From NCBI RefSeq assembly GCF_036365525.1, contig NC_090404.1, positions 9,858,001 through 9,922,000 of the forward strand: a stretch of DNA of 64,000 nt, read 5' to 3'. This DNA is from Heterodontus francisci. Its lineage: Eukaryota. The notes under the pieces are model-generated. The model was not told where the DNA came from. It worked only from the letters and a program-made list of their open reading frames with translations, and did no database searches. Position numbers and translations under genes: made by a program. Positions 26,500 through 64,000 of this stretch are shown here, piece after piece (positions within the stretch are counted from its first letter, which is position 1; each line of letters begins with the position of its first letter).

Positions 26500-26990
26500 A
26501 ATATAACATTAAGAACGTCTAGTGTAATTGAAACAGATACATGATCTAGTGTAGTATAAACAGAGATAGGGTTTAGTGTAACATAAAGAGACAGGGCCGA
26601 GTGTAATATAAACAGAGACAGGGCCGAGCATGATATAAACAGAGACAGGGTCTAGTGTAATATAAACAGAGACAGGGCCGAGCATGATATAAACAGAGAC
26701 AGGGTCTAGTGTAATATAAACAGAGACAGAACCTTAGAGTAACATAAACAGAGATGGCCCAGTGTAAAATAAAGAGAGACCTGGTCTATTACATTCTAAT
26801 TGAGATTAAGCCGAATTTAATATTAGCAGAGACATGGTCTAACATAGTATTAACAAAGATAGGACCCGATGTAATATAAATAGAGGCATTGTCTGGTGTT
26901 ATAACTGAGGCAGAACCTTGTGTAATACAGAGAGATGTTCTGCATTTCTAATTATCACAATTCCGACTGTAATATAAACAGAGACATGTC
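26500..26990 (+). repeat. ~27-bp minisatellite (tagtgtaatataaacagagacagggtc)n
   Basis: Tandem degenerate units; same family as 33330-34620 (reverse) and 44340-46690. Confidence 0.9.
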
Positions 26991-32750: not shown

Positions 32751-33274
32751 ACCAATGTAGATATAAAATGTCACCTGATCACCTTAACCATTTCAGTCGC
32801 AGCTTGGCTAAAGTAACTTGACTCTAATTTCAGAATCAGTAAATTGTGGATTCCACGTCAGCTTCAGAAACTGAATATATTAACCAGGCTTCCAATTGGT
32901 GCAGTGCTGAAAGGGCAATATCTTTCCAGGGACATTCTGAAACAATAATCTCTCCCCCACCCCTTTTCTGTTGAGTTGGACATTAAAGCTCCCATGATTC
33001 CACACAGTGTCCTGGTCAACATTCCTCCCTTGAACCAAGATCAACAAAAATACATTAACAGGAATTGAACCATTTTGCTCTATTCCTAATGTATCTATGC
33101 ACAAATTGGCCATGTTCACCTGGAATTAGTTACACTTTAAACCCTTTGGTACCTTCCACAGAAGGTGATGAGCTGGTACATCACTGCAAGTTGTTTCTTG
33201 ATACATTACTATCAGAAACAGTGACTAAATGCGAACTAAATCGACATTTTCACAATGGGAGCAATGACAATGTC

Positions 33275-33329: not shown

Positions 33330-34620
33330 ACCGCACTGGAGCCTCTCTGTATATGTTACACTTCGACCCTGTCTCTGTATATGTTACACTTAGACCCCAT
33401 CTCTGTTTTTATTACACTAGACTCTGTCTCTGTTTATATTAAACTAGACCCCATCTCTGTTTTTATTACACTAGACTCTGTCTCTGTTTTTATTACACTG
33501 AACCCTGCCTCTGTTTATGTTAACCTAGACCCCATCTCTGTTTATATTATAATATACCCTCTCTCTGTTGATAATACACTGGACCCTATCTCTGTTTATA
33601 TTAAACTAGACCCCATCTCTGTTTTTATTACACTAGACTCTGTCTCTGTTTGTATGACACTGGACCCTGTCTCTGTTTCTATTAAATTAGATCCTGTCTC
33701 TGTTTCTATTACTCTAGATCATGTTTCTGTTTGTGTTAGACTAGACCCTATCTCTGTTTAAATTACACTAGGTCCTGTCTCTTTTCATATTTCACTGAAT
33801 CCTGTCCCTGTTTATATTAAACAAGACCCCATCTCATAGCAACATAGGCAATAGGAACAGGAGTAGGTCATGCAGCCTATCGAGGCTGCTCTGCCATTCA
33901 ACTAATTCATGACTGATCTTCTACCTCAATGCCATTTCCCCCGCTCTATCACCATATCCCTGATATCTTCAATAACGAATAATCTATCAATCTCTGTCTT
34001 GAACTTACCCAGTGACTGAGCCTCCGCAGCCCTCTGGAGTGGAAAGTTCCAAAGATTCACCACCCTCTGAGCGAAGAAATTCCTCCTAATCTCAGTCCCA
34101 AATGGCCAACCACCTCCCATGCCATCCTAGCCCCCCGGAGAGCCAGGGGTAACATCTCTCCTGCATCTACACTGTTGAGTCCTGCAATAATTTTGTATGC
34201 TTCAATGAGGTCACCGCTTATTATTCTAAACTCTAGAGAATATAGACCCAGCCTCCTAAATCTCTCGTCACAGGACAATCCCGCCATCTCAGGGATCAGT
34301 CTGATGAATGTCCATGCACTCCCTCTAAGGCAAGTATATCCTTGCTTATTATTCTTGACCATGTCTCTGTTTATATTACACATGGCCTCCGCTCACTTCA
34401 TATTGATATAACCATGTTTCTTTTTATATTGCACTAAGCCACCCCCAGCTCTCGTTTATATTACACTAGAACAAATCTAGATTTTTACTGGGCTAGACCA
34501 TGTCTCTGTTTATTTTACAGTTGGCATTGTCTCAGTTGTTACTGCACAGACCCAGTCTCAAGCTAAATTACAAGCAACCCAGTCTCAGTCAAGAATGCAG
34601 TCTATCCTGTCTCTTTTTAT
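33330..34620 (-). repeat. 27-bp minisatellite (reverse orientation), interrupted by a CR1 tail at 33835-34345
   Basis: (gaccctgtctctgtttatattacacta)n units; source of the spurious ORF 33306..33761. Confidence 0.9.
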
Positions 34621-34659: not shown

Positions 34660-35225
34660 AGATAGATACATAGGCAACTAGATAGCTAGCTAGCTAGATA
34701 GGCAGACAGACAGATAGATAGACAGATAAACAGACAGATAGATAGATAGATAGATGGATAGACAGATAGGTAGACAGATANNNNNNNNNNNNNNNNNNNN
34801 NNNNNNNNNNNNNNNNNNNNNNNNNNNNNNNNNNNNNNNNNNNNNNNNNNNNNNNNNNNNNNNNNNNNNNNNNNNNNNNNNNNNNNNNNNNNNNNNNNNN
34901 NNNNNNNNNNNNNNNNNNNNNNNNNNNNNNNNNNNNNNNNNNNNNNNNNNNNNNNNNNNNNNNNNNNNNNNNNNNNNNNNNNNNNNNNNNNNNNNNNNNN
35001 NNNNNNNNNNNNNNNNNNNNNNNNNNNNNNNNNNNNNNNNNNATAGCTAATATAGATAGACAGATTGATCAATAGACCAATAGATAGACAGATAAGCAGA
35101 CAGATAGACAGGTAGATAGATAGAGAGATATCTAGACAGACAGATAGATCAATAGATAACTAGACAGATAGATAGATAGACAGAAAAACAGACAGCCAGA
35201 TAGACAGACGGATAGATCGATAGAT
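34660..35225. repeat. (GATA/GACA)n microsatellite surrounding an assembly gap
   Basis: Tetranucleotide repeats on both sides of the N run at 34781-35042 (262 N). Confidence 0.95.
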
Positions 35226-43881: not shown

Positions 43882-44215
43882 GGGAGGCAGTGACGCAGTG
43901 TTCATGTCACTGGACTAGTAATCCAGAACCCAGGCTAATGCTGTAGGGACACGGGTTCAAATCCCACCACTACAGATGGTGAAATGCGAATTCAGTTAAT
44001 CAATCTGGAATTAAAAGCTAGTCTAATGATGACCATGAAATCATTCTCGATGGTTGTAAAAACCCATCTGGTTCACTAATAACCATTACAGAAAGAAATC
44101 TGCCGTCCTTACCTGGTCAGACCTACATGGCACTCCAGACCCACTCAGTTCAAATGCAATTAGGGATGGTAATAAATGCTGACGCCCACATCCCACAAAC
44201 GAATTAAAAACAAAA
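43882..44215 (+). mobile_element. tRNA-derived SINE (same family as 3093-3472)
   Basis: gggaggcagtg..gtcactggactagtaatccaga..gggttcaaatcccacc..ctggaattaaaagctagtctaatg. Confidence 0.8.
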
Positions 44216-44339
44216 AGGAGCATCGGCCTAGATTATGTTGTCGAGTCTCCGGAGTGGCATTTCAACACACAACCATCAGATTCAGGGGTGAGAGCATCAC
44301 CAATTAGTCAATGCTGACATAATCTGTTCCCAGTTGCCA

Positions 44340-46690
44340 TTATACCAGACAGTGTCTAGTGTAATATAAACAGAGACAGGGCCCAGTGGAGTATAAACAG
44401 AGACAGGGCCTAGTTTAATACAAAACAGAGACAGGGCCCAGTGGAGTATAAACAGAGACAGGGCCCAGTGGAGTATAAACATAGACAGGGCCTAGTGCTG
44501 TAAGTTCACAGATAGGATCCAGTGTAACATAAAAGAAAGATGATGCAGTCCAGTGATAAGTGAGACAGGCTCTAGTGTAATATAAACTGATACAGGTCTA
44601 CTTAAGTATATACAGAGACCGGGTCTAGCCTAATATAAACAGGCAGGGCATAATGTAATGTAAAGAGAGTCGTGATCCAGTGCAGTAAGAACAGAGATAG
44701 GGTCCAATGTAAGATAAACAGACACAGGGTCTAATGTACTATAGATAGAGACAGGGTTTAGTGCAATATAAAGAGAGATGGAGTACAGTGTAATATAAAC
44801 AGAGACAGAGTATAGTGTAATAGATACAGAGATATGGTCTAGTATAATATAAACAGAGACAGGGTAGAGTGTAATATATACAGAGATGGGGACTAGTGTA
44901 ATATATATACAGAGACAAAGTATAGTGTAATAGATACAGAGATGTGTTCAAGTATAATATAAACAGACACAGGGTATATTGTAATATATCAAGGGATAAG
45001 GGAAGAAAGCAGGAACGGGGGTACTGAGTTTGGAAGATCAGCCATGATCGTATTGAATGGTGATGCAGGCTGCAAGGGCCGAATGGCCTACTCCTGCTCC
45101 TATTTTTCTATATTTCTAATATAAACAGAGATGGGATCTAGTGTAGTACAAACAGAGATGGGTCCAGTGTAATATAAGCAGATGCAGAGTATAGTGTAAT
45201 ATAAACAGATGCAGGGTACAGTGAAATATAAATTGAGAAGGGGTTCAGTGCAATATAAACAGAGATGGGGTCGAGTGTAATATAAATGGAGCAGGGTCTG
45301 GAGTAATATAAACAGAAACAGTGTATTGTGTAATATAAGATGAGATGGAGTCTAGTGTAATATGAACAGAGACAGAGTCTCGTGTAATATAAACATAGAC
45401 ATGGTCAATGTAATATAAAGAGAGACAGAGTCTGGTGTAATATAAACAGAGCTAGGGCCTTGTGTAATAACAATACAAACAAGGTCCAGTGTAATATGAA
45501 CAGACAGAGAGAGAGAGAGAGAGAGATCCTAGTGCAATTTTGGCACAATATTAACGAAGAGAGAGGGCTTAGACATGTTCTAGTGGAGTAATAATAGGAA
45601 CATCGTCCCGTGTAACATAAACGGAGACATTAACTGTCCAGAATTAATTGAAACTGGGTTTTTTATAGTATAAACAGACACAAGGTTTGGTGTAGCAAGA
45701 ACTGAGACTTTGCCAAATTTAATACAATCAGAAACATGGTCCTGTGTAGTAACTGCTGAGATGGGGCCTGGTGTGGAAATAACTCAGACAGTGACTGGTG
45801 TAATATGATCAGAGATAGGCTCTGTTATAATGTAAAGAGAAACAGGATCTTGTGCAGAAAAACTGAGACAGGGCCTAGTGCAGCAATTATTGATGCAGGA
45901 CCTACAGTAATATAAACCAACACTGGGTCTACTTTAGTAATTACTGAGACAGGGCCGGCAGCAGTAAAAACTGAGATTGCGTCTCGTGCATTGATAACAG
46001 GCACCATTTAGTGTAATCTAAACAGATACACGATCTAGTGTAATAGGAAGTGAGTCGACTGCAGTAATAATTGAGATGGAGTCTTGTGTAGTGTGTACAG
46101 GGACATGGTATAATGTATTCATAAGTGAAACAGGCTCTAGTATAATAAAAACTGAGACAAGACCCAGTGCAGTTTTCACTGATGGAGGACATTGTCCAAT
46201 ATAAACTGAGTCAGACCCTATTGCAGTATTTACTGATGCAGGACCTCGATTTATAGGAACTGAGACATGGAAAAGTGCAAGAAGAGGTGAGACAGGGTGC
46301 CCTGTAGGAGTAACGGAGAGATGGTTCAGTACAGTAATAACAGAGACAGGGCTTTGTGTGATAGAAACAGAACCGTGGTCTAGTGCAGGAATGACCTAGA
46401 CAGAGTATTGTGTGATGCAAGTAGAAACATGGTCCAATATATAAACACCTGAGATTGGGCCAATGCAGAAATAACTGAGGCATGGACTGTTTTTATATGA
46501 TCAGAGACAATGTTTGTTGGAATATAAATAGGAAAATGACCTTGTGAAATATAAAAAGAGACAGCATCTAGTATAATGTAGACTAAAGCAGGCTCTAGCA
46601 TCATATAAACTGGGACAGAGCCTAGTGCACTATGTACAGAGACAAGGTCTAGTGTAATATAAACAGAGACAGGGTCGAGGGCAGTAATAA
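44340..46690 (+). repeat. large 27-bp minisatellite array with a small CR1 tail at ~44990-45118
   Basis: (tagtgtaatataaacagagacagggtc)n, increasingly degenerate in the middle. Confidence 0.9.
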
Positions 46691-46734
46691 CTAAGGCCGT
46701 GTCTTTTTCACATAAATGTGAACAATCTGGCTTT

Positions 46735-46753
46735 CACTGACACCTGGTGGTTG
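46735..46753 (-). promoter_or_regulatory. CTCF motif (reverse)
   Basis: Reverse complement CAACCACCAGGTGTCAGTG sits at the position homologous to the 33275 site within the inverted duplicate. Confidence 0.45.
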
Positions 46754-47045
46754 TGTTTGGCCGTTGCTCCTATTGTGAAAATGTCGATGTCAGTTACTTT
46801 TTCTGATATTAATACACCAAGAAACAAATTGCATTGAGATACCAGCTCATCATTTTCTCTAGGGTGTCCCGAAATTTGAGGTGCGACAAATTCCAGATGA
46901 ACGTGGCCCATTTGTGCACAGAAACATCAGTAATGGAACAAAGTGGCCGAACTCCTTTAAATGTATTTTTGTTGATCTCGGTTGAAGGGGTTCCGGCACT
47001 TGTGGCAGAACCTGCCTCTCAAGGATTGACCTTAACTGGCAACAG

Positions 47046-50030
47046 CATAGAACATAGAACATAGAACATACAGCACAGAACAGGCCCTTCGGCCCACAAT
47101 GTTGTGCCGATCCTTTGTCCTCTGTCAAGGACAATTTAATCTATACCCCATCATTCTCCTTTATCCATATACCTATCCAAAAGCCTTTTGAAAGTCCCTA
47201 AAGTTTCTGACTCAACAACTTCCCCGGGCAAGGCATTCCATGCCTCGACCACTCTCTGGGTAAAGAACCTTCCCCTGACATCCCCCTTATATCTCCCACC
47301 CTTCACCTTAAATTTATGACCCCTTGTAACGCTTTGCTCCACCCGGGGAAAAAGTTTCTGACTGTCTACCCTATCTATTCCCCTGATCATCTTATAAACC
47401 TCTATCATGTCACCCCTCATCCTTCTCCTTTCTAATGAGAAGAGGCCTAGAATGTTCAGCCTTTCCTCGTAAGACTTATTCTCCATTCCAGGCAACATCC
47501 TGGTAAATCTCCTCTGCACCCTCTCCAAGGCTTCCACATCCTTCCTAAAATGAGGCGACCAGAACTGCACACAGTACTCCAAATGAGGCCTTACCAAGGT
47601 CCTGTACAGCTGCATCATCACCTCACGGCTCTTAAATTCAATCCCTCTGCTAATGAACGCTAACACCCCATATGCCTTCTTCACAGCCCTATCCACCTGA
47701 GTTGCAACTTTCAATGATCTATGCACATAGACCCCAAGGTCTCTCTGCTCCTCCACATGCCCAAGAACCCTACCGTTAACCCAGTATTTTGCATTCATGT
47801 TTGTCCTTCCAAAATGGACGACCTCACACTTTTCAGGGTTAAACTCCATCTGCCACTTTTCAGCCCAGCACTGCAACCTATCCAAGTCCCTTTGCAGACG
47901 ACAATAGCCCTCCTCGGTATCCACAACTCCACCAACCTTTGTATCATCTGCAAATTTACTGACCCACCCTTCGACTTCCTCATCCAAGTCGTTAATAAAA
48001 ATCACAAACAGGAGAGGACCCAGAACTGATCCCTGCGGCACGCCACTGGTAACTGGGCTCCAGGCTGAGTATTTACCATCTAAGACCACTCTCTGCCTTC
48101 TATCAGTTAGCCAATTCTTAATCCAACTGGCCACATTCCCCACTATCCCATGCCTCCTGACTTTCTCCATAAGTCTACCATGGGGGACCTTATCAAATGC
48201 CTTACTAAAATCCATGTACACCACATCCACTGGTTTACCCTCATCCACTTGCTTGGTCACCTGCTCAAAGAATTCAATCAGGCTTGTGAGGCAAGACCTA
48301 CCCCTCACAAAACCGTGCTGACTGTCCCGAATCAAGCAGTGTCTTTCCAGATGCTCAGAAATCCTATCCCTCAGCACCTTTTCCATCAACTTGCCTACCA
48401 CCGAAGTAAGACTAACTGGCCTGTAATTCCCAGGGTTGTTCCTATTCCCTTTCTTGAACAGGGGCACAACATTTGCCACCCTCCAATCACCTGGTACCAC
48501 CCCCGTCAGCAGAGAAGATGAAAAGATCATTGCCAGCGGCTCTGCAATTTCATCCCTTGCTTCCCATAACATCCTTGGATATACCCCGTCAGGCCCGGGA
48601 GACTTGTCTATCTTCAAGTTATTCAAAAACCCCAACACATCTTCCCTCCTAACGAGCACTTCCTCGAGCTTACCAGTCTGTTTCACACCGTCCTCTTCAG
48701 TAATACACCCCTTCTCATTCGTAAATACCGAAGAGAAGTACTCATTCAAAACCTCACTTATCTCTTCCGGCTCAACACACAGTCTCCCGCTATTGTCCTT
48801 GACCGGACCTATGGTCCCCCTAGTCATCCTCATATTTCTGACATACGCGTAAAAGGCCTTGGGGTTTTCTTTTATCCTACCCGCCAAGCATTTTTCATGC
48901 CCTCTCTTAGCTCTCCTAATCCCTTTCTTCAGATCCTTCCTGGCCATCTTGTATCCCTCCAGAGCTATGCCTGTGCCCTTTTTCCTCAACTTTATATACG
49001 CATCCTTCTTCTTCCTAACAAGACTCTCAACCTCTCTTGTCAACCACGGTTCCCTCACATGACCATCCCTTCCCTGTCTGACAGGGACATGCTTATCAAT
49101 GGCCCCTACTATCTGCTCCTTGAAAAAGTTCCACATTTCGACCGTGCCCTTCCCTGCCAGCATATGCTCCCAACTTATGCTCCTCAGTTCCTGCCTGACA
49201 GCATCATATCTACCCTTCCCCCAATTGTAAACCTTGCCCTGTTGCACATACCTATCCCTCTCCATTACCACAGTGAATGCTACAGAATTGTGATCACTAT
49301 CTCCAAAGTGCTCGCCCACCAACAGCTCTATCACTTGCCCTGGTTCATTACCTAGTACCAAATCCAATATTGCCTCCCCTCTGGTCGGGCAGTCTACATA
49401 CTGAGTCAGAAAAGCTTCCTGGACATACTGCACAAACACTACCCCATCCAAACTATTCGATCTAAAGAGTTGCCAATCAATATTTGGGAAGTTGAAATCC
49501 CCCATAATTACTACCCTGTGACTTCTGCTCCTTTCCAAAATCTGTTTCCCAATCTGCTCTTCCACCTCCCTGCTGCTATTGGGGGGCCTATAGAAAACTC
49601 CCATCAAGGTGACTGCTCCTTTCCTGTTCCTGACCTCAACCCACAGTGCCTCAGTCGGCAGATCCTCCTCGAAAATTCTTTCAGCAGTTGTTACACTATT
49701 TCTAACTAACAATGCCACCCCCCCCCCACCTCTTTTACCACCATTCCTAATCTTATGAAAACATCTATAACCAGGTACCTCCAAAAACCATTCCTCCCCC
49801 TCACCTATCCACGTTTCAGTGATGGCCACAACATCGTAGTCCCAAGTGCCCATCCACGCCTTCAATTCACTCACCTTATTCCTGATGCTTCTTGCGTTGA
49901 AGTATACGCACTTTAACCCTTCTCCGTGCCCATCTGTCCTCTGTGACAGTGCTACCTTCCCCAATACCTCACTACACTCTTTGTCTTTCTGAGTGGACCC
50001 ACTGGTCCCTGGATTACAAGTCCGGTTCCC
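47046..50030 (-). mobile_element. young CR1 LINE with complete ORF2, truncated near the ORF1/ORF2 junction
   Basis: (catagaa)n 3' tail at 47046-47070; possible short TSD CAGCA (47043-47047 / 50030-50034). Confidence 0.92.
47151..49935 (-). CDS. CR1 ORF2 endonuclease-reverse transcriptase (open frame; the annotated N-terminus to 50186 runs into flank)
   Basis: LKCVYFNARSIRNK, VAITETW, GDFNFP, SDHN, KFADDTK and LEYCVQFWSPH, all without stops. Confidence 0.9.
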
Positions 50031-53000
50031 AGCAAAGCTGCACCAAGAGAAGATACCCCTCCTAAATGGATTTTTTGCTTCGTGTCCATCATCTTTCGCA
50101 GATGGAAGGTTGTCAAACCATGGTTGAAGGGAGGATTGTTGACAAGGACAGTGTGGGGGCCATGGAAGCTTCAATGTCCACATCAACAGACAAGGAGAAG
50201 GGGAGCGATTATTGGTTCATGATATCACCTGAAAGACAGTGAGAGCGATTTCCCCCGATACTTTAAGTGCCACTGAGCCTCCAATGGAGCCAAGGTGGGA
50301 TCTCAAGCTGAAGCATTGATTTATCCCGCGTTTAACGAAAGATACCATCTTGGTAAAAGAGTTGATGCTTGTGCTCGGATCAGTCACCCGGAGGATCATT
50401 CAGCTGCTGATTGTCACTGAAATCGCCTGTTCACGCTCATCAAAGAGGCTACGCTTCATTTTGGTAACGAGCACTTGACCGATCCTCTCTATACACAACA
50501 ACCAGCTTATTGGTATAAACATGGTGTTGCAGAGTTTTTCTGCTCTACTTAAAGGTACATTGCCTTTTACTGTCCGCTTACTACAGGAAGAGGAATTTTG
50601 AAACCCATCAAGAGAATTTCTGCGACACTTTATCGACTTTGCCAACACCCTATAAACACTTATTCTTGGAATTGTCTGAGGGCCTCATCCAAAAAGTATA
50701 AGAACTGTGCAACTTGACCTGATAGGAGTCACTGAAGAAAAGAAGCGCTTTGTGATCGGCATCTTGCTGGCTGGATGAAAAGGGTGAGGACATGAGACCA
50801 TGCAGAGCAGCAGCTGCTGCAGGATAGTGAGACAGGAGGGTGAGGTGGTGTCCTTCCCCATTGCTGATACAGGACATCCCAGCTCCCCGGATCTCCTCCA
50901 GCAAGACCTACAATGCTGTGTCTGAGAATCTGTGCACCCACTCAATTAGTTCCTGAGTCACCCTGTAACCTGTCACCGTGTGGCAGTAAAGCCACCCACA
51001 CTTATAGTAGAAGTGGGTGCATGGAGCCCACATATACTGCTTCAAGAAAATTATGGTTAATTATCTGAGTGTTAAATCTGCAGGTCTCCAGCTTAGCTCC
51101 TCACGCAAGTTCAATCACGGTAATTAGCAATTGTGATCAAAATTGTGTGCCAGACATTCAAATCGAAGTGTTTCATTAGCACAGTGCCCATTTAGCCATT
51201 GTTTTCACTCTTTCACCAAAATAACCCCCAAAGTGTTTGTTATATATGCGGGTGTGTATGTGTACAAAATACATCAGGCTGTTTACATTTCCACAAATAT
51301 AACTAGTTGTCTTCACCAATTTTTTGAACCATTTATTTAATTCAAAATATAATTGCAGACCGAGGGTGATGTGCAGCTACCTAACAGTCTCTGTGTTTTA
51401 TTGTTAAGTGATCACCTCACCATCACACAGAAGCTGCTGGTATGTACCTCGTGTGTGTGATGATTTATGGAAGTGATGATAAAATGAAACTACCTGCACC
51501 TGGCGTGAAGTTCAAAAAACTGTAAATGACTGATTTATGACTTCCCCACTTTCCATAGGAACTGTAAAATGTTTAAAGAATTTGATGGTTTCTTTACAAT
51601 CGGTGCTGTTGAGGGATTCAGCTACTGATTGATGTGATTTGATGTTTATTTGCTGATGAGACTGTGTGTCTGGGCTACTTTAAATGTCTAACTGTTGTTA
51701 AACCTTTTGAAGTTTCTACCATGTTTAATCTCTGTGACATCTAGTTGCTGCAGGTTTTCTGATCTAATACAAGCAATATGTGTTTAAATACGTTTGAAAT
51801 AAAATTGTATGCAGAATGCTTCATTGGTTAAAAATAGCCTTACGATATTTTGATTTATTTTTATTTGTGGCAATTAAATTGCCATCTATCAATCTACTGC
51901 TCACGAATGCTCATTTGTAATACAATAAATTTTGATGTGATTAAGAACGACATGAATAACAAATTTGAAGCTTTGCTCAGATTTATATTAATATAACCTC
52001 ACTCATTATCATGCAGTGAAAACAGACAATATCAATGAAAGATGCTGTGGTATGAATATCAATTTACTAAACATGCACTCTATACTGACAATTCTGCTGC
52101 CATGATTTTATATTTCTGGTAATTCAGAGACAGGCAGGCTCGGTGGATTCTGTATTGAGATTTTTTTACAATGTTGCATTTGATTCTGCTGAAATGTTTG
52201 TGGAATTCAGCTGCTGCTCCATGAAACATACTGAGGTGGGGTTCAGCCCCTCAGTGATGTGAGTTAGTGTTTATCTGCTGAGGAGAATCAGTCTCTATGT
52301 TCCAAAGTAAAATTTGTGAAACTGTTTGGCGTTTCTGCTTTGTTGAAGCTCGGTGACATGGAGCGGCTGCAGGTATTCTGATCAAATAGAAACATTCTAC
52401 GTGTTTAAAACTGTTTGAAAGACGACTGTAGCCGGAAAACTGGCAGGTTTCAGAAATGAGAAAAAAAAACATTCAAAGATATTTCAAAACATTTTTTTAA
52501 AACTTCAGTGATAATTGCAGATTAAACTATAAAGCCGTGGTTTGCGACGCTCATTCAGAACGTGAAATGTTATTGCAATTACAAACTGCAAAATTAGCAA
52601 GTTTGCAGATTGTTGAGTTAAGTTAATGTAATTCAAACAATTATAATGCGGCAATATCTCCTCATTTGAAACAAATATGCTTTAATATTACCATCGATTC
52701 ATTATTCATTAATCACCTTTCGCAATTCTGGTGTGCCGTGCGCACAATTATCGTGACCAGAAAATTTCATGGGCTGGAGACAATTTTTAATTATGCTTGA
52801 AATTATTTCAATAAGAGGGCACTTATTCCAGCTCTCTGTTCATTTTGATGAGCGCTTTTGAATTAATTGCTATATTCCTGATTAAAACAGATGAATGACT
52901 GCTTGTATTTACTAATAACTTAAATAGGAGTTGGAAATTGCAGTTTGTCAGTGTAATATATCTGTCCGGTTATTACATTCTTTGCGTGCAGCCCAAACCA

Positions 53001-54924
53001 TGTTCTTCCATCAATGTCATTTGTTGTTGGATAGTGAGATAATTATCACTAATCTAATATTAACCATTTTCCCGAGACAAGAAGTCGCTGGCAGTCAAAA
53101 AATTGTTCATATGGTTTTATTTAAATTGAAGAAACTTGCAGACTGTGTAAGGCGAGAGGCAGTGAAATAACACCTTGAAATTAAAGCAGATACAATTAAT
53201 TGCAAAGTTTAATGTGAGTTTTTAATTCACTAACAACTTCCTGTCACCCACAGCTGTGCTTCACACAGGATAGAATTATAGACGAAGAACAGATTATACC
53301 TGAGTTATGCTCAATTCTTATTAAATAATAAATTGATCAACAAAATCTCGGCTACATTTGCTCATGAAGTTTCAAATGTCGCAGATGATCTGGAAGAATT
53401 AGTCTCGTCCAATTTTACAGTGATCATTTTGGAGCTTCTTTTAATAAAAAACACAATATATTTAACAACTAATTTACAGGGATTGTGTGAATCACGGGAG
53501 TAAAATATAAAAACATTGTCTGATTAAACAGCGGCAGCACAGTTACTGATCGCAAACTGTCCAAATATTTTTAATTTTTTCTTTATATAGTTAAGATTTA
53601 GACAACATTTAAACAGGAGAGTACTGCTTTCACAAACAGGCGATGTTACAGCCCATCGACAGTTAGTGAGATGTGACCCCGGCCAGGCTATTTAAAATAG
53701 TCCACTCTTAAATCAACCATGTGAAATACTCGTTGAGAATAGACGGAGTTTATGATATATCAACACATTCAGATACATGTTTAGAGGTTTGTGGATAGAA
53801 AGCAAGGCAGAAGTAGAAATTATTGTTCATTTTAAATTATTGAACTGTGATTCGACTAAAGTAAGTCATATATTTGTCAATATATCATCTATTAATATGA
53901 CGTTTATTATTTAATATTGGTGAAGTGTCATAATAATTTAATTAAAACCCCAAGGTGCCAGGGAGAAACTGGTCTTGAATTAATATTGACTAATGTTTAA
54001 AATACAGTATAAAATCAGCATACATGAATATTAACCTAGAATATAATAGTGCCAATTCATTAAACATAAATGACATCCCACAATTGAGTAGTATACTTGC
54101 CAGGATTCCAATGAGTGCAAAATCTCAAGGGTCGGAGAGAATTTTGAATTATGTCAAAAAATAATTGAGAGAACAATACATTTCTTACACAGATGTTCTT
54201 AGCTCGATAAGGTGTCACCGCAGATTTTAATGAATTAACTTTGCGTATTGTTTCACTTATTTTTTTGGTAACTTTTAATTCTGAAAGTGTATCAAACCAG
54301 TGGGTAACCGGTTTGCAAGGTAAATGTCTCATGCTTTTCTGAATTCTTACTCTGTCACTGATTTCCAGTTACGGACATCAAATTTTCCTTAAGGCAAATT
54401 GTTTTGATGCACTGATTTTAAGGGAAACTATATCTTACATGTTTTTAAGATTGCAAACAGACAGGGAGAAACAGTTGGCGGTCGAAGGGAGCTTTTGAAA
54501 TGAATATCATTTTAATTTCAAAGAGTTTATATACTTGGAGTGCTCACAATTTGACAATTGATCAATTAGAATCAAACAGCTTAACTGAAATTGACAGATT
54601 GAACAGATCTATCTACTGAAATGGTTGCACCGTTTGTGTCTGTTCTGTTTCTGTGCGCCTGCTCACTGTGTCGGGCTGAGGAGTTCCCCCAGCTAGTTGT
54701 AAACAGTCTGGTTCGCTCTACTGCATTTGAAGGAGTACAACTTAATCCATTTATTTAAGAAACTTGTACCGTTGAGAAACCTAAAAGTTTGACTTTAAGT
54801 TTGATGAGGTGCCTCAGCAATGAGATCAGTATTCCAGTCTGTGACAATCAGAAATAACAGTTCAGGGACACGACAGACAGACTGTAGAAGGAGTATTGGT
54901 CAGTTTGTCATCAGTAATGTACCT

Positions 54925-55310
54925 CCTTTGGGAGTGTTAGATTCGACAATGTAGAGGAAGCGTGACTGCATATTTACTCCATACTGTAACTGTGCTGGGA
55001 CCGTTTGCATGTGGGAAGTGTGGAGGGAGGAATCACTCTGCATCTGTACCGCGGTGAACCTATACTGCATGTATTTGATGGGACAGCATAGAGGGAACTT
55101 GATTTTATATTAAACTAGTGCTATACCCGACCCAGAGTGACAGTGCAGTGTAGAGGTGGCTTTCCACAGACTATAACACTTGCAATGTCTGACCTTACAG
55201 CTCATGACAGCACCGTACAAGCGGGTCTTTACTCAATAGCTTAACTTTCCTGTACCTGACCTGAGAGTGTTTGCCCCGCAGTCTTCAAGCAACCTTAATC
55301 TGCATCTAAC
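54925..55310. repeat. degenerate ~65-bp tandem repeat
   Basis: Recurrent tgggagtgtt..gacagtgtagagg..ttt..tatctaac..tgtacctg units. Confidence 0.55.
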
Positions 55311-55999
55311 TCATAAGCTGTGAGTTCTCGACCCAGAGATATGAAAATAAATTATTCCATTGCCCAGTTGAAACAACGCACATAAATTGATTTGAACATT
55401 CGTTCATTGCCATTTTTATAATGAATGAATAATAATTAAAATGTTAAATATTAGATAATCATTGAATGAGATTGACCTGATTTTGAGCGCACTTTCAGAA
55501 CAAACAGTTTCAGGAAGTGGCTGCAACGATCCAGAGAGCGGCGTCTGTTCTGATCTGATGGGAGGTTGGAAGTTCTTTTGGCGATTTAAGCTGAGAAAAT
55601 CGAGACTCCCGCTCCCAATAACCATCATGATAATCTCATGTTTGAAGCCAGTATTTCGTGCAAGTATTTTCAAAAGGTAACAGGCAGTGATAAACTCTGG
55701 TGAGATGCAGTCATTGGACTGGGTCACAGCAGAAGGCACAAAGCCACTGAAGTAAGCTTTTGTGAAACTTTTGAAGTGATAGAGTTAGTCTGCAATCAAC
55801 ACCAATCACAATAAGCATTAAGTCTCCGACAGTATCTGATTGACTTATTTGTATTAAATCCCTCAGATCCTCTTATTTTTAAAAATCCCGTTTCATTATA
55901 ACAAACTATAAAAATATATGTCACAGAAATGTTCAAATTTATGAAGCCTTTCCTCCCATTAAATTGCGAAGAACTTATTCTACTGAGCCGGGTAGATCA

Positions 56000-58030
56000 A
56001 ATAAGCTTAGAGCATGCAATGTGACTATTCGGCCTGTCATGCCTGTGTTGGCTCTCAAGAGCTCTCCAATTTAATTGTACAAGCCAGCGTTTTCCTCATA
56101 ACCATGCAAATTCGTCCCATTCGAGGACATGTCCAGTTGCCTTGTGCACTCCAGATGCGCCTGCAGAGAGCCTGCACGAACACGATGGACCGAATGGCCT
56201 TTTTTGGTGCTGTAACCAGTCTATAGTTATATGAAAACACTCTCTGTCTGGAAAGAAACCTCCTTCCGCAACCAACACCCGCCCACGTTCCATTTTTTTT
56301 TTTGCCAATTATTTGTTTGGTTGCTGACCCATTTGCCAGAGGAAACAGTTTCTCCCTATATGCTATATTAAAACATCCCATAATTTTGAATATACCTATT
56401 CGGTAACCATCTAAGGAGAACAATTCGGCTTGTATAATCTCTCTGCATAACTGAACTCCCTCATTTCTGATATCATCCTGGTAAACTCCCTCTACACTCC
56501 CACCAACAACCTTACTAAAGTGTGATGGCCAGAAATGTGCAAAAAATACTCCAGCCTAATCAGTGATTTGTAAAACTTTAACATGACTTCCATGTTTTTT
56601 TGTATTCGATACTTCATTTTACAGGACCAAGTATTCCATTCGCTTTCGTAAGGGCCTTCAAAACATTGTGAATATGCACCTCAGATCCCTGTACTTTTAT
56701 ACCCCTTCAAAATAGTACCATTAATATTACGTTAACTTTGCATGTTATTCTTCAAGAAGTGCAACACTTCACATTGAACCGGATTAAATTGCATTTGCTA
56801 TGTCCCTGAACATTTCACCAGTCTGTCGATGTCATCCTGAACTCTGTTACCATCCTGCTCATTATTTGCTTTGTCTCATCCTCGAACTTCGAAATTCTAC
56901 TTCCCATCCCCAAGTCCACGTCATTATATTTATGAAAAAAAGAAGCAATGACCATACGACCGACCAAAGGGCGATCACAATACTTTATTGTTTCCAGTAA
57001 GAAAAGCATTGGTTCACCATTACTCTATGCTTCTTTTAAAAAACTATAGAACAGTCGAAAATTAAGGCACAGAAGGAGGCCATTCAGCTCGTCGGGCCTG
57101 TGCTGGCTGAAAAAACCAGCCGCCCAATCTAATCCCACCTTCCAGCACCTGGTCCATAGCCTTGCCGGTTAGAGCATTTCAGGCACATGTCCAGGTACAT
57201 TTTAAAAGAATTGAGGGTTTTTTCCTCCACCACCGTTCCTGGCAGTGAATTCCAGACACCCACCAGCCCTGGGTGAAAATGTTTTTCCTCATGTTCCCTC
57301 TAATCCTTCTACCAATCAGCTTAAATCTGTGTCCCCTGGTAATTGACCTCTCGGCTATGGGAAACAGGTCCTTCCTGTCTACTCTATCTAGGCTCCTCAT
57401 AATTTTGCACACCTCAATTAGGTCACCCTTCAGCATCATCTGTTCGTAGGCAAATAACCCTAGCCTATCCAATCTTTCCTGATAGCTGCAACTTTCGAGC
57501 CCTGTCAACATTTTTGTAAATCTCTTCTGTACTCTCTCCAGAGCAATTCTGTCCTTTCTGTAATGTGGTGACCAGAACTGTGTGCAATACTCCAACTTGG
57601 CCTAACCAGCATTTTATACAGTTCCAGCATTACATCCCTGCTTTTGAATTCTATATCTCGGCCAATAAAGGAAAGCATTCATATGCCTTCTTCACCATTC
57701 TATCTATCTGTCCTGCCACCTTCAGGGACCTGTGGACATGCATTCCAAGGTCTCTCACTTCTTCAGTCCCTCTCAATATCCTATCATTTATTGTGTATTC
57801 CCTCGCTTTATTTATCCTCCCCAAATGCATTACCTCACACATATTTGGATTGGATTCCATTTGCCACTTTTCCGCCCACTCAACCAAACCATTGCTATCA
57901 TTCTGGAGTCTATGGCTATCCTCTTCACTATTGACTACATGGCCAATTTTTGTGTCATTTGCAGATTTCCCAATCATGCCTCCCACATTTAAGTCCAATC
58001 ATTAATATATCCCACAAATAGCAAGAGACC
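56000..58030 (-). mobile_element. two CR1 3' fragments (old 56000-57040; younger 57045-58030)
   Basis: ORFs 57179..57595 and 57651..57998 (EYCTQFWSPHYRKD; KSANDTKIG). Confidence 0.85.
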
Positions 58031-58247
58031 TATACCTTAGCAGGTTACCGCCATCCCTTTAATCCATGCGCTTCTATTTTCTGAACGTTCTCTTATGTGT
58101 TCTATTCTCTAATGTCATTTTAAAGCCCATATGTCCAATCTTTGCGCCACCAACATCGACAATTTCTCGGTGACCGAGCTTTCAATATCTAACCAATAAG
58201 CCTCAGGTGTTTGAATTGCTCACATAAGCCAGAAGTGAGAGTTGACC

Positions 58248-58323
58248 ATGTCAGCAATAACATTGCAGGAACTTTTGTTCTTCCTTGCATGGAGCCTACT
58301 GATATTCACTCGATGTCTAATGT
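58248..58323 (+). CDS. candidate leader (signal-peptide) exon in phase with IgM CH1
   Basis: gaccATG (A at -3); MSAITLQELLFFLAWSLLIFTRCLM plus 1 nt; donor T|GTAAGT at 58324-58329. Phase 1 matches the CH1 acceptor. Predicted from sequence only. Confidence 0.4.
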
Positions 58324-59783
58324 GTAAGTGGTGGCAATATCGGATATTTATAGCGGAAACCTGTCCTGATGTGCACATTATGGTCGGTGCAAGAAGCAAC
58401 AACAGCGACTCTAACACAATCAGCAAAACCAGTTCTCACTGGTGAGAGGTGGAAAGATACTTTGGAAAATTAAATGGACCATTTAAAGAACATTGTTCCA
58501 GATGTCCGATTTAGGAATCAAATTTAATTCGGATTATTAAGTTATTTGGAGGGAGAAGCAAACTCGGGAGAGATCCATTCAGTAGAATAATATAGAACAC
58601 AAATCACAATCCTCTCGCACTGAGAAGGAAAGTGATAGCCAAGAATCAATTCCGAGTCATCTAAAATTTTAATTCCAGAAACTCGGTTGTGTAAAAATTC
58701 TCCTTTGAAATCTGTGCACTAAATGATTCAGCCCATAATTTAAAGAAGAATTCAACTATTTATTGGAAAAGTTCTTTATTGTCATGGGGACATAGAAGAT
58801 TAAAATGAAGTCTGGTAGAGGTGTTTTGAAGAATGAATGGTTTTATACTGAAATTCCAAAACCAATTTGCCCAGATCAGTGTACTGGGCTGCAGAGGGCA
58901 CTGATTTAAAATGAGCGTCAAAAGAATGAAGAAAGAGGGTATGAATCTACTTTTCTACACAGGGGGTTGCTAGGATCTGGGATGTCCGATCAGAAAGAGG
59001 GCTGTAAACAGAATCAAAAATAGCTGGATAAAATGGAACTTTTGAAAAGAAGATTTGGAATTGGAAGGTCAGCGGGATCGCTGGAGTGATCTTTCACAGG
59101 CTTGATGGACCGAATGGCCTCCTTCTCTGCAATCATTTTTATTATTTTATAATCCTGGATCATTAACATGCCAGGATTTGTTGTTGATTTTTATGGGAAA
59201 ATAATGGAATTACTGTGCCTGGTGGTCAAGTTATGAATTTTAAGATCATTTTATTAGCACGCATTATGATGGCACGTGTTAAGAGTAGTCGCTATTTGAG
59301 GCAGGGGGTGCGGGGTGGGGGTGGGGGTGCGGGGTGCGGGGTGGGGGTGGGGGGGAGGGGTTGGAGGGGTGGGAGAACCCAGCAGTATATTTGCAGAAAG
59401 CAAATTTCCAAAAACTGCAATTAATAAATGCTGAGTGTTTTATTTTTTGACAAAGTGCTGTTGGTTTAGAAATAAATACTGGCCGATAAAGCAGGGCAAC
59501 ACCTCTTCCAGTTTAATCCAATGAAAGGTACTTTATTGAGATGACTTCAAAATGCTCTTACTTTTGTAATGTGACAGCCCCTGTCAGACAGGTGTGTTCC
59601 TGACCAGGAGACCGACAGGTGATGATCACCAAATGATGGAACTGATAGAAGCTCAAATGGGGATGAAGGTTTTAATCGAAAAATAGTGGAATCAGTTTCT
59701 AGCTAGAGTCAAATTCCCAGTTGTCTGGTTACTTAATCATGAATCACAGAGTCTAACTTGTTCAATCTGCCATTCTTTCGCAG

Positions 59784-60080
59784 CGACACCGTCTCCCGCA
59801 ATACTTTACGGCCTGTGCTCCTGTGAACAAACCAACACCGACGGCTCCTTGGCCTACGGCTGTTTGGCGATGGACTACAGCCCCGAAATCACCAGCATTA
59901 CCTGGAAGAAAGATAAAGAGCCGATCACCACTGGATTGAAGATTTACCCATCTGTGCTGAACAAGAAGGGAACCTACACCCGGAGCAGCCAGTTAACCAT
60001 CACCGAGTCAGAGGTGGGAAGCAGCAAAATCTACTGCGAGGTTCGACGCGGAGAGTCGCTCTGGATCAAGGAAATTCTAG
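59784..60080 (+). CDS. IGHM: IgM heavy chain constant exon CH1
   Basis: Acceptor ttctttcgcag; (A)[66 protein letters not shown]; donor G|gttagt; 297 nt. Confidence 0.97.
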
Positions 60081-60282
60081 GTTAGTGTTGTGGAAACTGT
60101 GAAAAACAGAAAAGCGTGAATAGAGCTTTTGCTATATCACATTTAGAGCATTGTGCAAAGTTGTGATCCCTGGAAACCCCAGTTAGTGTCTACTTGACAG
60201 CAAAGAACCTGTTAAAATATAGGTCCAGTTTTCATCAGTTATTAATTTCTTCTAAAAAATGTCTAACATGTTTTTCTTCAAG

Positions 60283-60600
60283 ATTGCAAAGGTGTCATCG
60301 TCCATCCAACTGTCATCCTCACCCAGAGTTCCAGTGAAGAAATCACAAGCAGCAGATTTGCAACTGTCTTGTGTTCAATCATCGATTTCCAGCCAGAGTC
60401 AATAACCGTGAGTTGGTTGAAGGATGGACAACCCATGGATTCGGGCTTCGTCACCTCTCCCGCCTGTGAAGTGAACGGGAACTTCTCGGCGACCAGTCGG
60501 CTGACAGTCCCCGCTGGGGAATGGTTCACCAACACGGTCTATACCTGCCAGGTCTCCCATCAAGAGGTCACCCAAAGCCGAAACATCACCGGATCTCAGG
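60283..60600 (+). CDS. IGHM: IgM heavy chain constant exon CH2
   Basis: Acceptor tttttcttcaag; [47 protein letters not shown]; donor G|gtaaga; 318 nt. Confidence 0.97.
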
Positions 60601-60979
60601 GTAAGAGACACAAACCGAGGAAGCTTCGGACCATTCTATGCTCCGATGATAATCTAATTCAACAATTTATTGGAATTAGTACAAAGTACAGATTAATTTT
60701 CCAATTCGTCATCATGAGGTTTTTTGGTTCATTCCGCTGTGAGTGCTGAATTAGGATTGCTCACAGTTCAACATGTCATCAGTTCACCAAAGAATGGTTC
60801 TTTCTGCTTTGATGTCATTTCGTGAGTGAGGTGGCCTTGATCTCAGGTTTATCATGAGTTGGCTGATCCTATTCGGAGCGGTAATTGGTGTCTGGAACCC
60901 TTTACTAGTCACACCACCGGATCAAGTGCCAGAAAGAGCATCTTCCCTATTTCGAAAACTGTGTTGAATTCTGAACTCA

Positions 60980-61470
60980 TGAGCTCAGGAAGAATATATT
61001 GGCCTTGGGAGTAGTGCAACACAATTAGACTGGAATGATAGCGGGGCTAAACGGGTTAAATTAAGAGGACAGGTTTCACAGATGAAACTGCTATCACTTT
61101 GAGTATAGTACGTTAAAGCGTGAGCTAGTTGAGGTGTTTAAGATGTTTATTGGAATTGATGGAGTAGATGGAGGAAAATATTTCCTCTGGTGAGCAGTCC
61201 AGAGCAAAGGGGCATAACTTCCAAATTAGACCAAGTTCATTCCGGGATGATATCAGGAAATCTATTCACACAGTGGGGAGCGGAAATCTGGAATTATCTC
61301 CCTCAACTCTCTCTAGAAGTCGGGCATCAATGAAAAATTTTCATGTTGAGATTGATGGATTGAAGTTAGACAAGAGTAGAAAGGGTTACATATCGGGAGA
61401 CGGTATTAAGATACAGATCAGCCATTGTCTAATTGAATGGCGAAACAAGCTCGAGGGGCTGTTTCTATTA
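60980..61470 (+). mobile_element. old CR1 3' fragment in the CH2-CH3 intron
   Basis: gagcagtccagagcaaaggggcataa..cagatcagccat..tgaatggcg..gctcgaggggctg tail. Confidence 0.65.
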
Positions 61471-62206
61471 CTGCCCTCTGGTCAGATCGCCATCTGACTC
61501 CAGACTGACACATGAGGAGTTGTCACTCGTGACAGATATCAGCAAACTGCCTGACACCGTTATTGAAAATTATTCTCCACCACTAAAAGACTCCTTGAAA
61601 CTGCATTTTCCCGACCTTTCACCCTTCCTCCGCTTGGTTCCTCCTTAATTTCATCTCCTCAAATGTCGTGACAAAGCGCCAGAAAATTAACTTTGTTTCC
61701 TGTTGGACCTAAAATTCAGAATTTCATTTGACACTCGTTTTGAGCCAGTGTGAATTCTATATAGCTCGTGTCCCTGGGTAACAGAGCCATTATAATCAGC
61801 GGAGATGTGATCCGGTGCAAGGATCGATAGATGGGAGGAAATGCGAACATACGAATTCGGAGCAGGAGCAGACCACTCGGCCCCTCGAGCTTGCTCCCGC
61901 AGGGATTTCGGGAAGAACGTTATTCAGTGTGTAACACAATTTCTCCGGCACTTATTCGATTTTTAGGCCGGGTACTTGCTTCATAGCCCATTACAGACTT
62001 CGGTGGGTGCAAGTACACCGTATATGTTAAGGCATCTCCCGGATGCTTTTTCATGTTGTTTTCCTTCCAATAAACAATATTATTTAAAGAACAGCTTGAG
62101 GTTGATATCTCGAAATCGATTTATTTTCATATAGACAGTGAAGGCTAAATATTGGTGTCTGATTCTGAATATGAATCTTTGTTTGACTTTCATTTCTGTT
62201 TTACAG

Positions 62207-62515
62207 TTCCTTGCTCAATCGGTGATCCAGTAATTAAACTACTGCCACCATCAATAGAACAGGTCTTACTGGAGGCGACGGTGACCTTAACCTGCGTCGT
62301 GTCTAATGCTCCTTATGGAGTCAACGTGTCCTGGACACAAGAAAAGAAGCCTTTGAAATCAGAGATTGCCGTCCAACCCGGAGAGGATTCCGACAGTGTG
62401 ATCAGCACCGTAGACATCTCGACACAAGCCTGGCTGAGTGGGGCTGAGTTCTACTGTGTGGTGAGCCATCAGGACCTGCCGACTCCTCTCAGAGCATCTA
62501 TCCATAAGGAAGAAG
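62207..62515 (+). CDS. IGHM: IgM heavy chain constant exon CH3
   Basis: Acceptor ctgttttacag; [50 protein letters not shown]; donor G|gtgagc; 309 nt. Confidence 0.97.
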
Positions 62516-62960
62516 GTGAGCGGTGAGATTGAAGCAATAAGGGAGAGGTTGTGCTTATTTCCAGTGTTTGTACAAGGGGCAATTCGTCCTATTAAATGGT
62601 TGAATGGATTATTCTGATAATTGAATTGTAATTCACTAATGGGCCTCTCCAGAACCATAGATGATGCATTTAAGGGGAAGCTAGATAGGTAGATGATGGA
62701 GAAAGGAATAGAAGGAGATGAAGTGTGGTGGGAGGAGGTTCGTGTGCAGCTTAAACACCAGCACAGGCTAATTGGGCCGAAAGGCCTTTTCCTGTGCTGT
62801 AAATTCTATGTAATATTCCAGAATAATCCTTTATGTTCTCAGCGAGAAGGATTGCATCCGCCTCAGCTCAGGGCTGGAAAGCAGGACATGCCCCAGAGGA
62901 GAAAGGAAAACCTTTCTGGAATTCTCCAGTTTATTGACACTTATTTTAAATTTTCTGCAG

Positions 62961-63352
62961 TTAAAGATCTGCGGGAACCGTTCGTGTCCGTCCTCCTGCC
63001 CCCGGCAGAAGATGTCTCTGCTCAGAGGTTCCTCTCCCTCACCTGCTTAGTGAGAGGTTTCTCTCCCCGAGAGATCTTCATCAAGTGGACCGTCAATGAC
63101 AAGTCGGTGAATCCCGGTAACTACAAGAACACCGAGGTGATGGCGGAGAACGACAATAGGTCCTTCTTCATCTACAGCCTGTTATCCATTGCAGCGGAGG
63201 AGTGGGCCAGCGGCGCTTCTTACTCCTGTGTGGTGGGACATGAAGCGATCCCCTTGAAGATCATCAACAGAACAGTTAATAAATCCAGCGGTAAACCCAG
63301 TTTTGTGAACATTTCCCTTGCACTGTTGGACACTGTTAATTCATGTCAATGA
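62961..63352 (+). CDS. IGHM: IgM heavy chain CH4 + secretory tailpiece
   Basis: Acceptor ttttctgcag; [58 protein letters not shown]-stop (N-glycan site NIS, penultimate Cys). The internal donor G|gtaaac after 63290 serves the TM form; TM exons are not in the window. Confidence 0.98.
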
Positions 63353-63380
63353 GAATCTCACGATTGCATTTCAATACTTA

Positions 63381-63396
63381 AATAAAAACCAATAAA
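63381..63396 (+). terminator. tandem poly(A) signals of the secretory mu mRNA
   Basis: AATAAA at 63381-63386 and 63391-63396, about 30-45 nt after the stop. Confidence 0.85.
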
Positions 63397-64000
63397 GAAC
63401 TTTTCGTCCAATCGCGATTTAAATGCACAACCGCTCAATTAATTTTGCTTCCCACATTTTCTAGGGTAGGTCTATTCATCTAAAGTAGGATTTGTGCAGG
63501 TCTCGGGCGCACGTCTTCTAAAACCAGGGCTCCCAGTTCAGATACAACACAGGATCGCGACAGAGGAAAGCTGATTCATTACAGGATTCCGTAGAGTAAC
63601 TTCGACAATGTTCCTCCCATTGGGACGAAAGCTAAGATTTTCCATTTTCTAACAAACAAAAGCAGCACAGTTAGATCTCGGTGTGCCTGCTTTTGTGTTG
63701 TCCATCCCTTCAGAATCGGGGTCAGTTTTAAGTTGCAGCACACGAAGCACTGGGAACTGAAGTGAGGGCGCCAGACGAATACCAACAATATCCAAAATCA
63801 CCCAATACATAGAGGGGAAAAGATAGTTCATCAACTCACTGTACCACCGCTTCCTAAACAGAGAGAGCAAAAGGGCAATTGTTAATCCACTGTAACTCCA
63901 CTTCTGGAATAGAGAGAGGGCAAAGGCAATTGTGAACCGTCTGTGCACCTCCCCCCAATTCCTCCAACAGATAAAGGAGCAAGGGCATTTTTTAACCCAT

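Follow-up and report, generated by a model that had tools for sequence, protein, structure and literature searches.

The 64,000 nucleotides of Heterodontus francisci DNA analysed here (NCBI RefSeq assembly GCF_036365525.1, contig NC_090404.1, positions 9,858,001 to 9,922,000 of the forward strand; hereafter the window, with positions counted from its first letter) end in the four constant-region exons of a secreted immunoglobulin M heavy chain (C-mu), upstream of which no variable (VH) or joining (JH) segment was found in the window. The observation of a V-less C-mu within the window is confirmed. A preliminary description, made from the sequence alone, had inferred that the block of variable, diversity and joining segments (V-D-J) was lost or displaced, and within the window this is supported. 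That description offered three options: a recent pseudogene, an isotype that serves only as a recipient of switching, and expression through a leader exon. The first of these fared best. On balance, and with no great confidence, we lean towards a working cluster having been recently truncated or duplicated in part, with RNA of the lineage coming mainly from a near-identical complete twin.

The 3' end of the window is a secreted-form C-mu and a member of the shark C-mu family. Each of the four exons has an AG acceptor, GT stands at the three internal donors, and the exon lengths keep phase 1, giving a product of 438 amino acids (aa) without internal stops whose C-terminal residue is the secretory-tail cysteine. 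With two AATAAA signals behind it, the gene is as first described, its four exons open, its AG/GT splice sites in place and its poly(A) signals present. Each of the four exons matched the Pfam C1-set family, and per-exon amino-acid identity to two H. francisci IgM chains was 89-95%. The top database match was the constant region of H. francisci IgM (89% for CH1 and 93% for CH3), IgM and not IgW or IgNAR being nearest. Two letters in CH2, at 60314 (silent) and 60392 (Gln for His), were absent from every DNA paralog contig that covers them. No disabling change was found in the four coding exons, and the defect of the locus is its missing V-D-J. Transmembrane exons had no match in 63352-64000, the last piece before the window ends. 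The database also contained a 232-aa protein (P0027) filed under Aeromonas veronii on a 742-nucleotide contig, with 70% identity to CH3 of shark C-mu, which is probably host contamination of a bacterial assembly.

The search for the missing segments was made in several ways. A hidden Markov model (HMM) built from 20 shark VH regions, run in six frames with stops read through, reached at most 2.9 bits in the window, while its training sequences scored 111-203. A profile from 13 distinct J sequences reached 20.3 in the window, against 47.9-62.7 for real J segments, and no more than 15.5 on the + strand of 44000-59783. Neither a published JH primer nor a back-translated J motif had a match in the window at three mismatches, the best ungapped match having seven mismatches over 23 specified bases. 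Four V and J patterns found nothing in the six frames of the window, and none of the 32 matches to [WF]GxG was J-like. V-set domains were absent by Pfam from the 102 of 174 open reading frames (ORFs) of at least 75 aa that hold two Cys and one Trp; CH1 was the sole immunoglobulin match among these ORFs, which also gave domains of long interspersed nuclear elements (LINEs) and zinc fingers. The earlier statement that 1-59783 holds no VH or JH was thus borne out. D segments are too short for direct exclusion, and the V and J negatives do not extend to them.

Recombination signal sequences (RSSs) were scanned for across the whole window, with two loose matches, none at exact spacers, and both at chance level. 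The preliminary description had reported no RSS anywhere; there is in fact an RSS-like site in J orientation at 54631-54670, which we rejected as a genuine signal, as it was equalled in 33 of 100 shuffles and has no J after it, and the looser match at 33003 was rejected as chance. An old tandem duplication of about 250 nucleotides in the 5' part of the intron before CH1 was tried as a decayed J: its two copies both end in a J-like donor context, yet they scored 8 against a shuffle maximum of 20.3 +/- 2.1. The best score of that test in 44-59.8 kb was 19, which 90.5% of 200 shuffles reached. Leader-like exon candidates numbered 15, at 7 distinct places across the window, and none was VH-leader-like. 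The ORF at 54621-54758, 46 codons long, starts like a signal peptide and was rejected for want of a GT[AG] phase-1 donor; it overlaps the RSS-like site, and paralog contigs cover the region. Two leader-like candidates from 59233 were rejected for weak donors, and the ATG there reads differently in every contig over it (three of the four runs described below cover it). Within the window the locus is not a functional shark heavy-chain minicluster: there is no leader or VH within about 20 kb of the constant exons, no JH with WGxG and a donor, and no RSS-flanked segment.

Heterodontus IgM clusters span about 18-20 kb in V-D-D-J-C order, according to one published account (PMC2191167). Because of that published size, a V-D-J would be expected at no greater distance upstream than about 43-45 kb, counting 18-20 kb back from the secretory stop. 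The DNA there consists of LINE, minisatellite and low-copy DNA, with no V-D-J. The constant exons are preceded by a retained intron of J-C type, about 8.4 kb long (Table 1). Contigs of four runs were aligned to the window, and six DNA contigs listed from the two DNA runs (X1 and X3) were 86-89% identical to it, the listing starting at 52252; contig identity below 85% would go undetected, which limits the boundary of the homology. The first listed paralog-wide difference is at 51711, and RNA contigs are near-exact from 51872. This homology fits the J-C intron of other clusters, in which a J would lie upstream. GC content is about 0.36 across 51397-55900, and a LINE fragment lies at 57.1-58.0 kb. 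Earlier, the region back to about 51 kb had been described as AT-rich, unique and J-C-like; its J-C type stands, while its uniqueness does not, given the paralogs and the LINE fragment.

Both copies of the 250-nucleotide duplication carry a donor-like CTGCAG|GT, and AATAAA occurs at 51798 and 51924. Just before the duplication lie what we take to be a PU.1-like motif (51540) and an E-box (51497); the duplication is possibly an enhancer or a switch-prone element. The density of AGCT is 1-7 per kb over 50-60 kb, and there is no repetitive switch region.

Upstream of the intron, a low-copy stretch of about 1.4 kb (50032 to about 51396) separates it from a young LINE. The preliminary description had the intron giving way to LINE and minisatellite DNA; the LINE is indeed upstream, and this low-copy stretch stands in between. 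By the logic of 31-letter contigs, and judging by the end of the run X1 contig 50916-51426, the shared intron sequence would begin at about 51397. If that boundary is exact, this contig starts in single-copy DNA and has some 30 letters in the shared intron, slightly fewer than the 31-letter bridge rule asks. A mis-join in the 50916-51426 zone is unlikely because the single-copy DNA upstream is matched almost without difference by contigs of the DNA runs as far as 51426. The low-copy DNA of 50032-50915 had only weak, unrelated matches in Pfam (9 frames), PDB (1 frame) and Atlas (one 49-aa piece), and its reading frames are broken. Its origin could lie in a mobile element, since decayed, or in the 5' flank of an immunoglobulin cluster, and if it is such a flank, only the V-to-J block was deleted. 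The depth of window-exact DNA contigs (7.1-8.4 upstream, 10.5-12.5 in the intron) would fit a third copy, and summed depth would give about 20-27 intron and 80 CH2 paralogs; neither was counted, as contig depth is not copy number.

The state of the exons bears on the age of the truncation. When neutral decay was simulated, with an indel rate assumed to be one tenth of that of substitutions, none of 1500 runs at 6% divergence kept all four exons open, whereas 0.7% did so at 3% and 53-71% at 0.2-0.4%. The intron is about 12% diverged from the listed paralogs. Because simulated neutral decay at that distance would have broken the exons, the C-mu lineage appears to have been selected for most of its history, until recently or still. 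If the truncation is recent, the open frames are uninformative on present function.

Runs X5 and X6 were treated as RNA, and they look rich in IgM: spliced joints, of CH3 with CH4 at GT..AG and of CH1 with CH2, occur in their contigs. None of the runs listed is on record as RNA. The eight RNA contigs listed from them match the introns of the C-mu lineage closely, in pieces of 51872-62988. Against the window they differ at 19 of 4784 nucleotides (11 of 4237 without the most 5' contig), and seven of the eight carry at least one substitution; the seven DNA contigs that are window-like have 2 differences in 3288 (Fisher p 0.003). At position 56851 the non-window letter is the sole one present in each of the two RNA runs. 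The most 5' contig, 51872-52418, has the window's private letters at four listed sites and eight other changes (8/547), which fit hypermutation behind a VDJ, as a twin and a switched allele would both predict. At the CH2 sites 60314 and 60392, whose window letters are shared by no DNA paralog contig, the paralog letter is missing from 0.06-0.12% of RNA depth, equally at both sites in each run; this residue may be a rare transcript of the lineage or sequencing error. None of the 16 joints listed, of 753, links upstream DNA to CH1. Over 50162-50738 RNA depth is near zero (0.4 and 2.0), which would fit an absence of read-through from upstream; this was not counted, as contig depth is not expression level. 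The simplest reading of the lineage RNA is that it would come from an expressed twin about 99.6% alike, either a sister cluster or the other allele.

The favoured course of events is as follows. A deletion or partial segmental duplication would recently have cut a working V-D-D-J-C minicluster near the 5' end of its J-C intron and placed the C region beside zinc-finger, tRNA and LINE DNA. Left with neither a V promoter nor RSS-flanked segments, the copy would offer RAG nothing to join and could make no antibody by rearrangement of its own. Its exons would still be open as little time has passed since the truncation, and a twin about 99.6% alike that kept its V-D-J would be the main source of the lineage-specific RNA in both runs. 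Sharks are known to have incomplete clusters and pseudogenes (PMC8692893; PMC5192425).

Several points weigh against this account. The V-D-J of the supposed twin is unseen, the search having covered the window and the contigs. The RNA-to-DNA comparison is biased, since the listing gave eight pieces per run from a total above 213,000 and variants tend to end DNA contigs. Ordinary heterozygosity of this locus could also account for the RNA differences, in which case the orphan itself is transcribed, and the changes in 51872-52418 also fit hypermutation near a switch junction. The four runs come from one sample, possibly that of the assembly, and so test the join, not other animals. Among the contigs listed none bridges 50840-50916, the LINE or the N gap, and the breakpoint is placed to within a few hundred bases only.

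Foremost among the other explanations is that the orphan itself is used, either through AID-dependent breaks that join the rearranged VDJ of another cluster into the retained intron or through sterile transcripts from the 5' part of the intron. Nurse-shark VDJs are expressed with C regions of other clusters more than 120 kb away, as reviews describe (PMC4279169, PMC4588147, PMC5192425), and here nearly all of the intron has been kept, RNA contigs bearing the letters of the lineage come from both RNA runs, the most 5' of them is the most changed, and the small CH2 residue is of equal size at its two sites within each run. Against these stand the 19 differences between the RNA contigs and the window, and the size of the residue, which is of the order of sequencing error, while its letter is not stated and level is poorly measured by contig depth; neither a switch junction nor a foreign VDJ was seen among the short contigs listed. 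We hold this explanation to be unlikely. The narrower proposal of a recipient-only C-mu, kept intact and expressed only after AID-driven switching joins a VDJ of another cluster into its intron, is without direct support, and we judge it decidedly unlikely.

The cluster might instead be complete and stretched, its V-D-J lying in the gap of 262 N or beyond base 1 and its intron swollen by inserted DNA. There is room for such segments in the gap, and a young LINE and long minisatellites do lie upstream. The gap, however, and the intron's 5' end are 16 kb apart, GATA microsatellite flanks the gap on either side, a tRNA gene and no fewer than four zinc-finger exons beyond it would have to sit within the intron, and the whole would far exceed the published 18-20 kb; we give this little credence. 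An assembly artefact, in which a mis-join or haplotype switch among near-identical clusters put a normal C region behind foreign DNA, seems just as improbable. Such an error would be favoured by the large number of similar clusters, by the young LINE of high copy number 1.4 kb upstream and by the gap that the window contains, as well as by 50840-50916 and the LINE, which no listed contig bridges. Contigs of the two DNA runs, however, span 50916-51426 without a difference and 50936-51395 with one, from single-copy DNA to the shared-intron zone, and because there is no J between 50916 and CH1, a mis-join further upstream would not restore one.

Least probable is a V-less heavy chain in which a leader exon, lying in the intron or upstream, is spliced directly to CH1: such a chain has parallels in the V-less IgW transcripts of dogfish and nurse shark and in catfish secreted IgD without a V, which join a leader exon to the first C exon (PMC5192425), and the ORF from 54621 begins like a signal peptide, but no VH-type leader was found in the window, that ORF has no suitable donor, the 59233 candidates have weak donors and a variable ATG, and with no listed RNA joint from upstream DNA to CH1 the leader-exon option gained no support.

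The C region has a zinc-finger and tRNA cluster beside it (Table 1). Zinc-finger exons of the C2H2 type number at least four, several of them decayed, at 1-180, about 5.4-5.9 kb, 14.9-15.3 kb and 23.5-24.1 kb. Other copies of the LINE that precedes the low-copy DNA diverge in their continuation at 50031, and no clear target-site duplication was found for it; its family is probably active because near-identical contigs occur in both RNA runs. A 27-nucleotide minisatellite family occurs at three places and in both orientations (26519-26780, 33344-33829 and 44347-46676), and is a possible substrate for local rearrangement.

Table 1. Features of the window with their positions, strands and supporting observations.
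Feature	Positions	Strand	Observation
LINE	6315-9521	-	long open endonuclease-reverse transcriptase frame, 1069 aa stop to stop
tRNA-Ser gene	16094-16175
LINE	16515-18938	+	long open endonuclease-reverse transcriptase frame, 808 aa stop to stop
Assembly gap, 262 N	34781-35042	.	GATA microsatellite on each flank
Young LINE, 5'-truncated at about 50031	47046-50031	-	open frame of 1021 aa, stop to stop, for endonuclease and reverse transcriptase; Pfam RVT_1 and Exo_endo_phos
Low-copy DNA upstream of the junction	50032-50915	.	run X1 contig 50114-50840, 0 differences
Single-copy junction zone, non-immunoglobulin DNA to intron	50916-51426	.	run X1 contig, 0 differences over 511 nucleotides; run X3 contig (50936-51395), 1 difference
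Retained J-C-type intron, about 8.4 kb	51397-59783	+	5' limit approximate (about 51.3-51.7 kb), inferred from the end of the single-copy contig
Old tandem duplication of about 250 nucleotides, 5' intron	51562-51816 and 52186-52437	+	copies about 71% alike
RSS-like site, J orientation (rejected)	54631-54670	+	perfect heptamer, 24-nucleotide spacer, nonamer with 2 mismatches
CH1 exon of C-mu	59784-60080	+	AG/GT, phase 1, open; Pfam C1-set; 89-90% to H. francisci P0013/P0014
CH2 exon of C-mu	60283-60600	+	AG/GT, phase 1, open; Pfam C1-set
CH3 exon of C-mu	62207-62515	+	AG/GT, phase 1, open; Pfam C1-set
CH4 and secretory tail of C-mu	62961-63352	+	terminal Cys; stop codon 63350-63352; Pfam C1-set
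Two poly(A) signals, secreted form	63381-63396	+	AATAAA at 63381 and 63391

Isotype switching between clusters was reportedly described in the nurse shark by Zhu et al. in 2012 and by Zhang et al. in 2013. An intact intron with its C region, as found here, is the type of DNA to which a switched VDJ could join; the partners reported there, however, have a V-D-J of their own, whereas the locus in the window has none and no switch junction was seen. In the heavy-chain translocon of tetrapods, downstream C genes likewise lack a V-D-J of their own. The present locus differs from these in that it has no repetitive switch region, an I-exon promoter is not demonstrated, and the window contains no VDJ upstream of it. 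It also resembles the V-less IgW and IgD chains in having C domains without V, but it has no credible leader exon.

Nearest to the locus are the IgM miniclusters of H. francisci itself (P23087/P23088; full chain UTD43067), with which it shares the same four C exons and secretory tail, the phases, a homologous J-C intron and 89-95% identity per exon. Unlike them it lacks a leader, a V and a J over the 59 kb that precede it, and its intron is only 86-89% alike to the listed paralogs. Incomplete clusters are on record in other sharks: three of seven IgNAR clusters in the bamboo shark (PMC8692893), three IgM pseudogenes in the nurse shark (PMC5192425, PMC2435157) and an IgNAR locus reported as not expressed (PMC11641339). 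Like these, the present locus is a partial cluster in a multi-cluster family subject to gain and loss; it differs in that its C exons carry no disabling change and its intron is almost entire. No report of a recipient-only locus or of an intact V-less shark C-mu was found in the literature searched, which was thin in primary papers on shark heavy-chain loci and without supplements; relevant loci may appear in the locus tables that accompany PMC12227049 and PMC8692893.

If the locus is a young truncated copy, it is another sign of gain and loss among the antibody clusters of sharks, and a caution for counting clusters by their C region. This C region cannot rearrange alone, so that a transcript with its exact letters would need switching between clusters or trans-splicing. 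Such transcripts would measure switching in sharks free of the ambiguity that complete clusters bring, and would bear on the origin of downstream C genes that have no V. Were the locus a recipient only, which as said we think decidedly unlikely, it would be a natural intermediate between the multi-cluster layout of sharks and the tetrapod translocon with its downstream switch targets.

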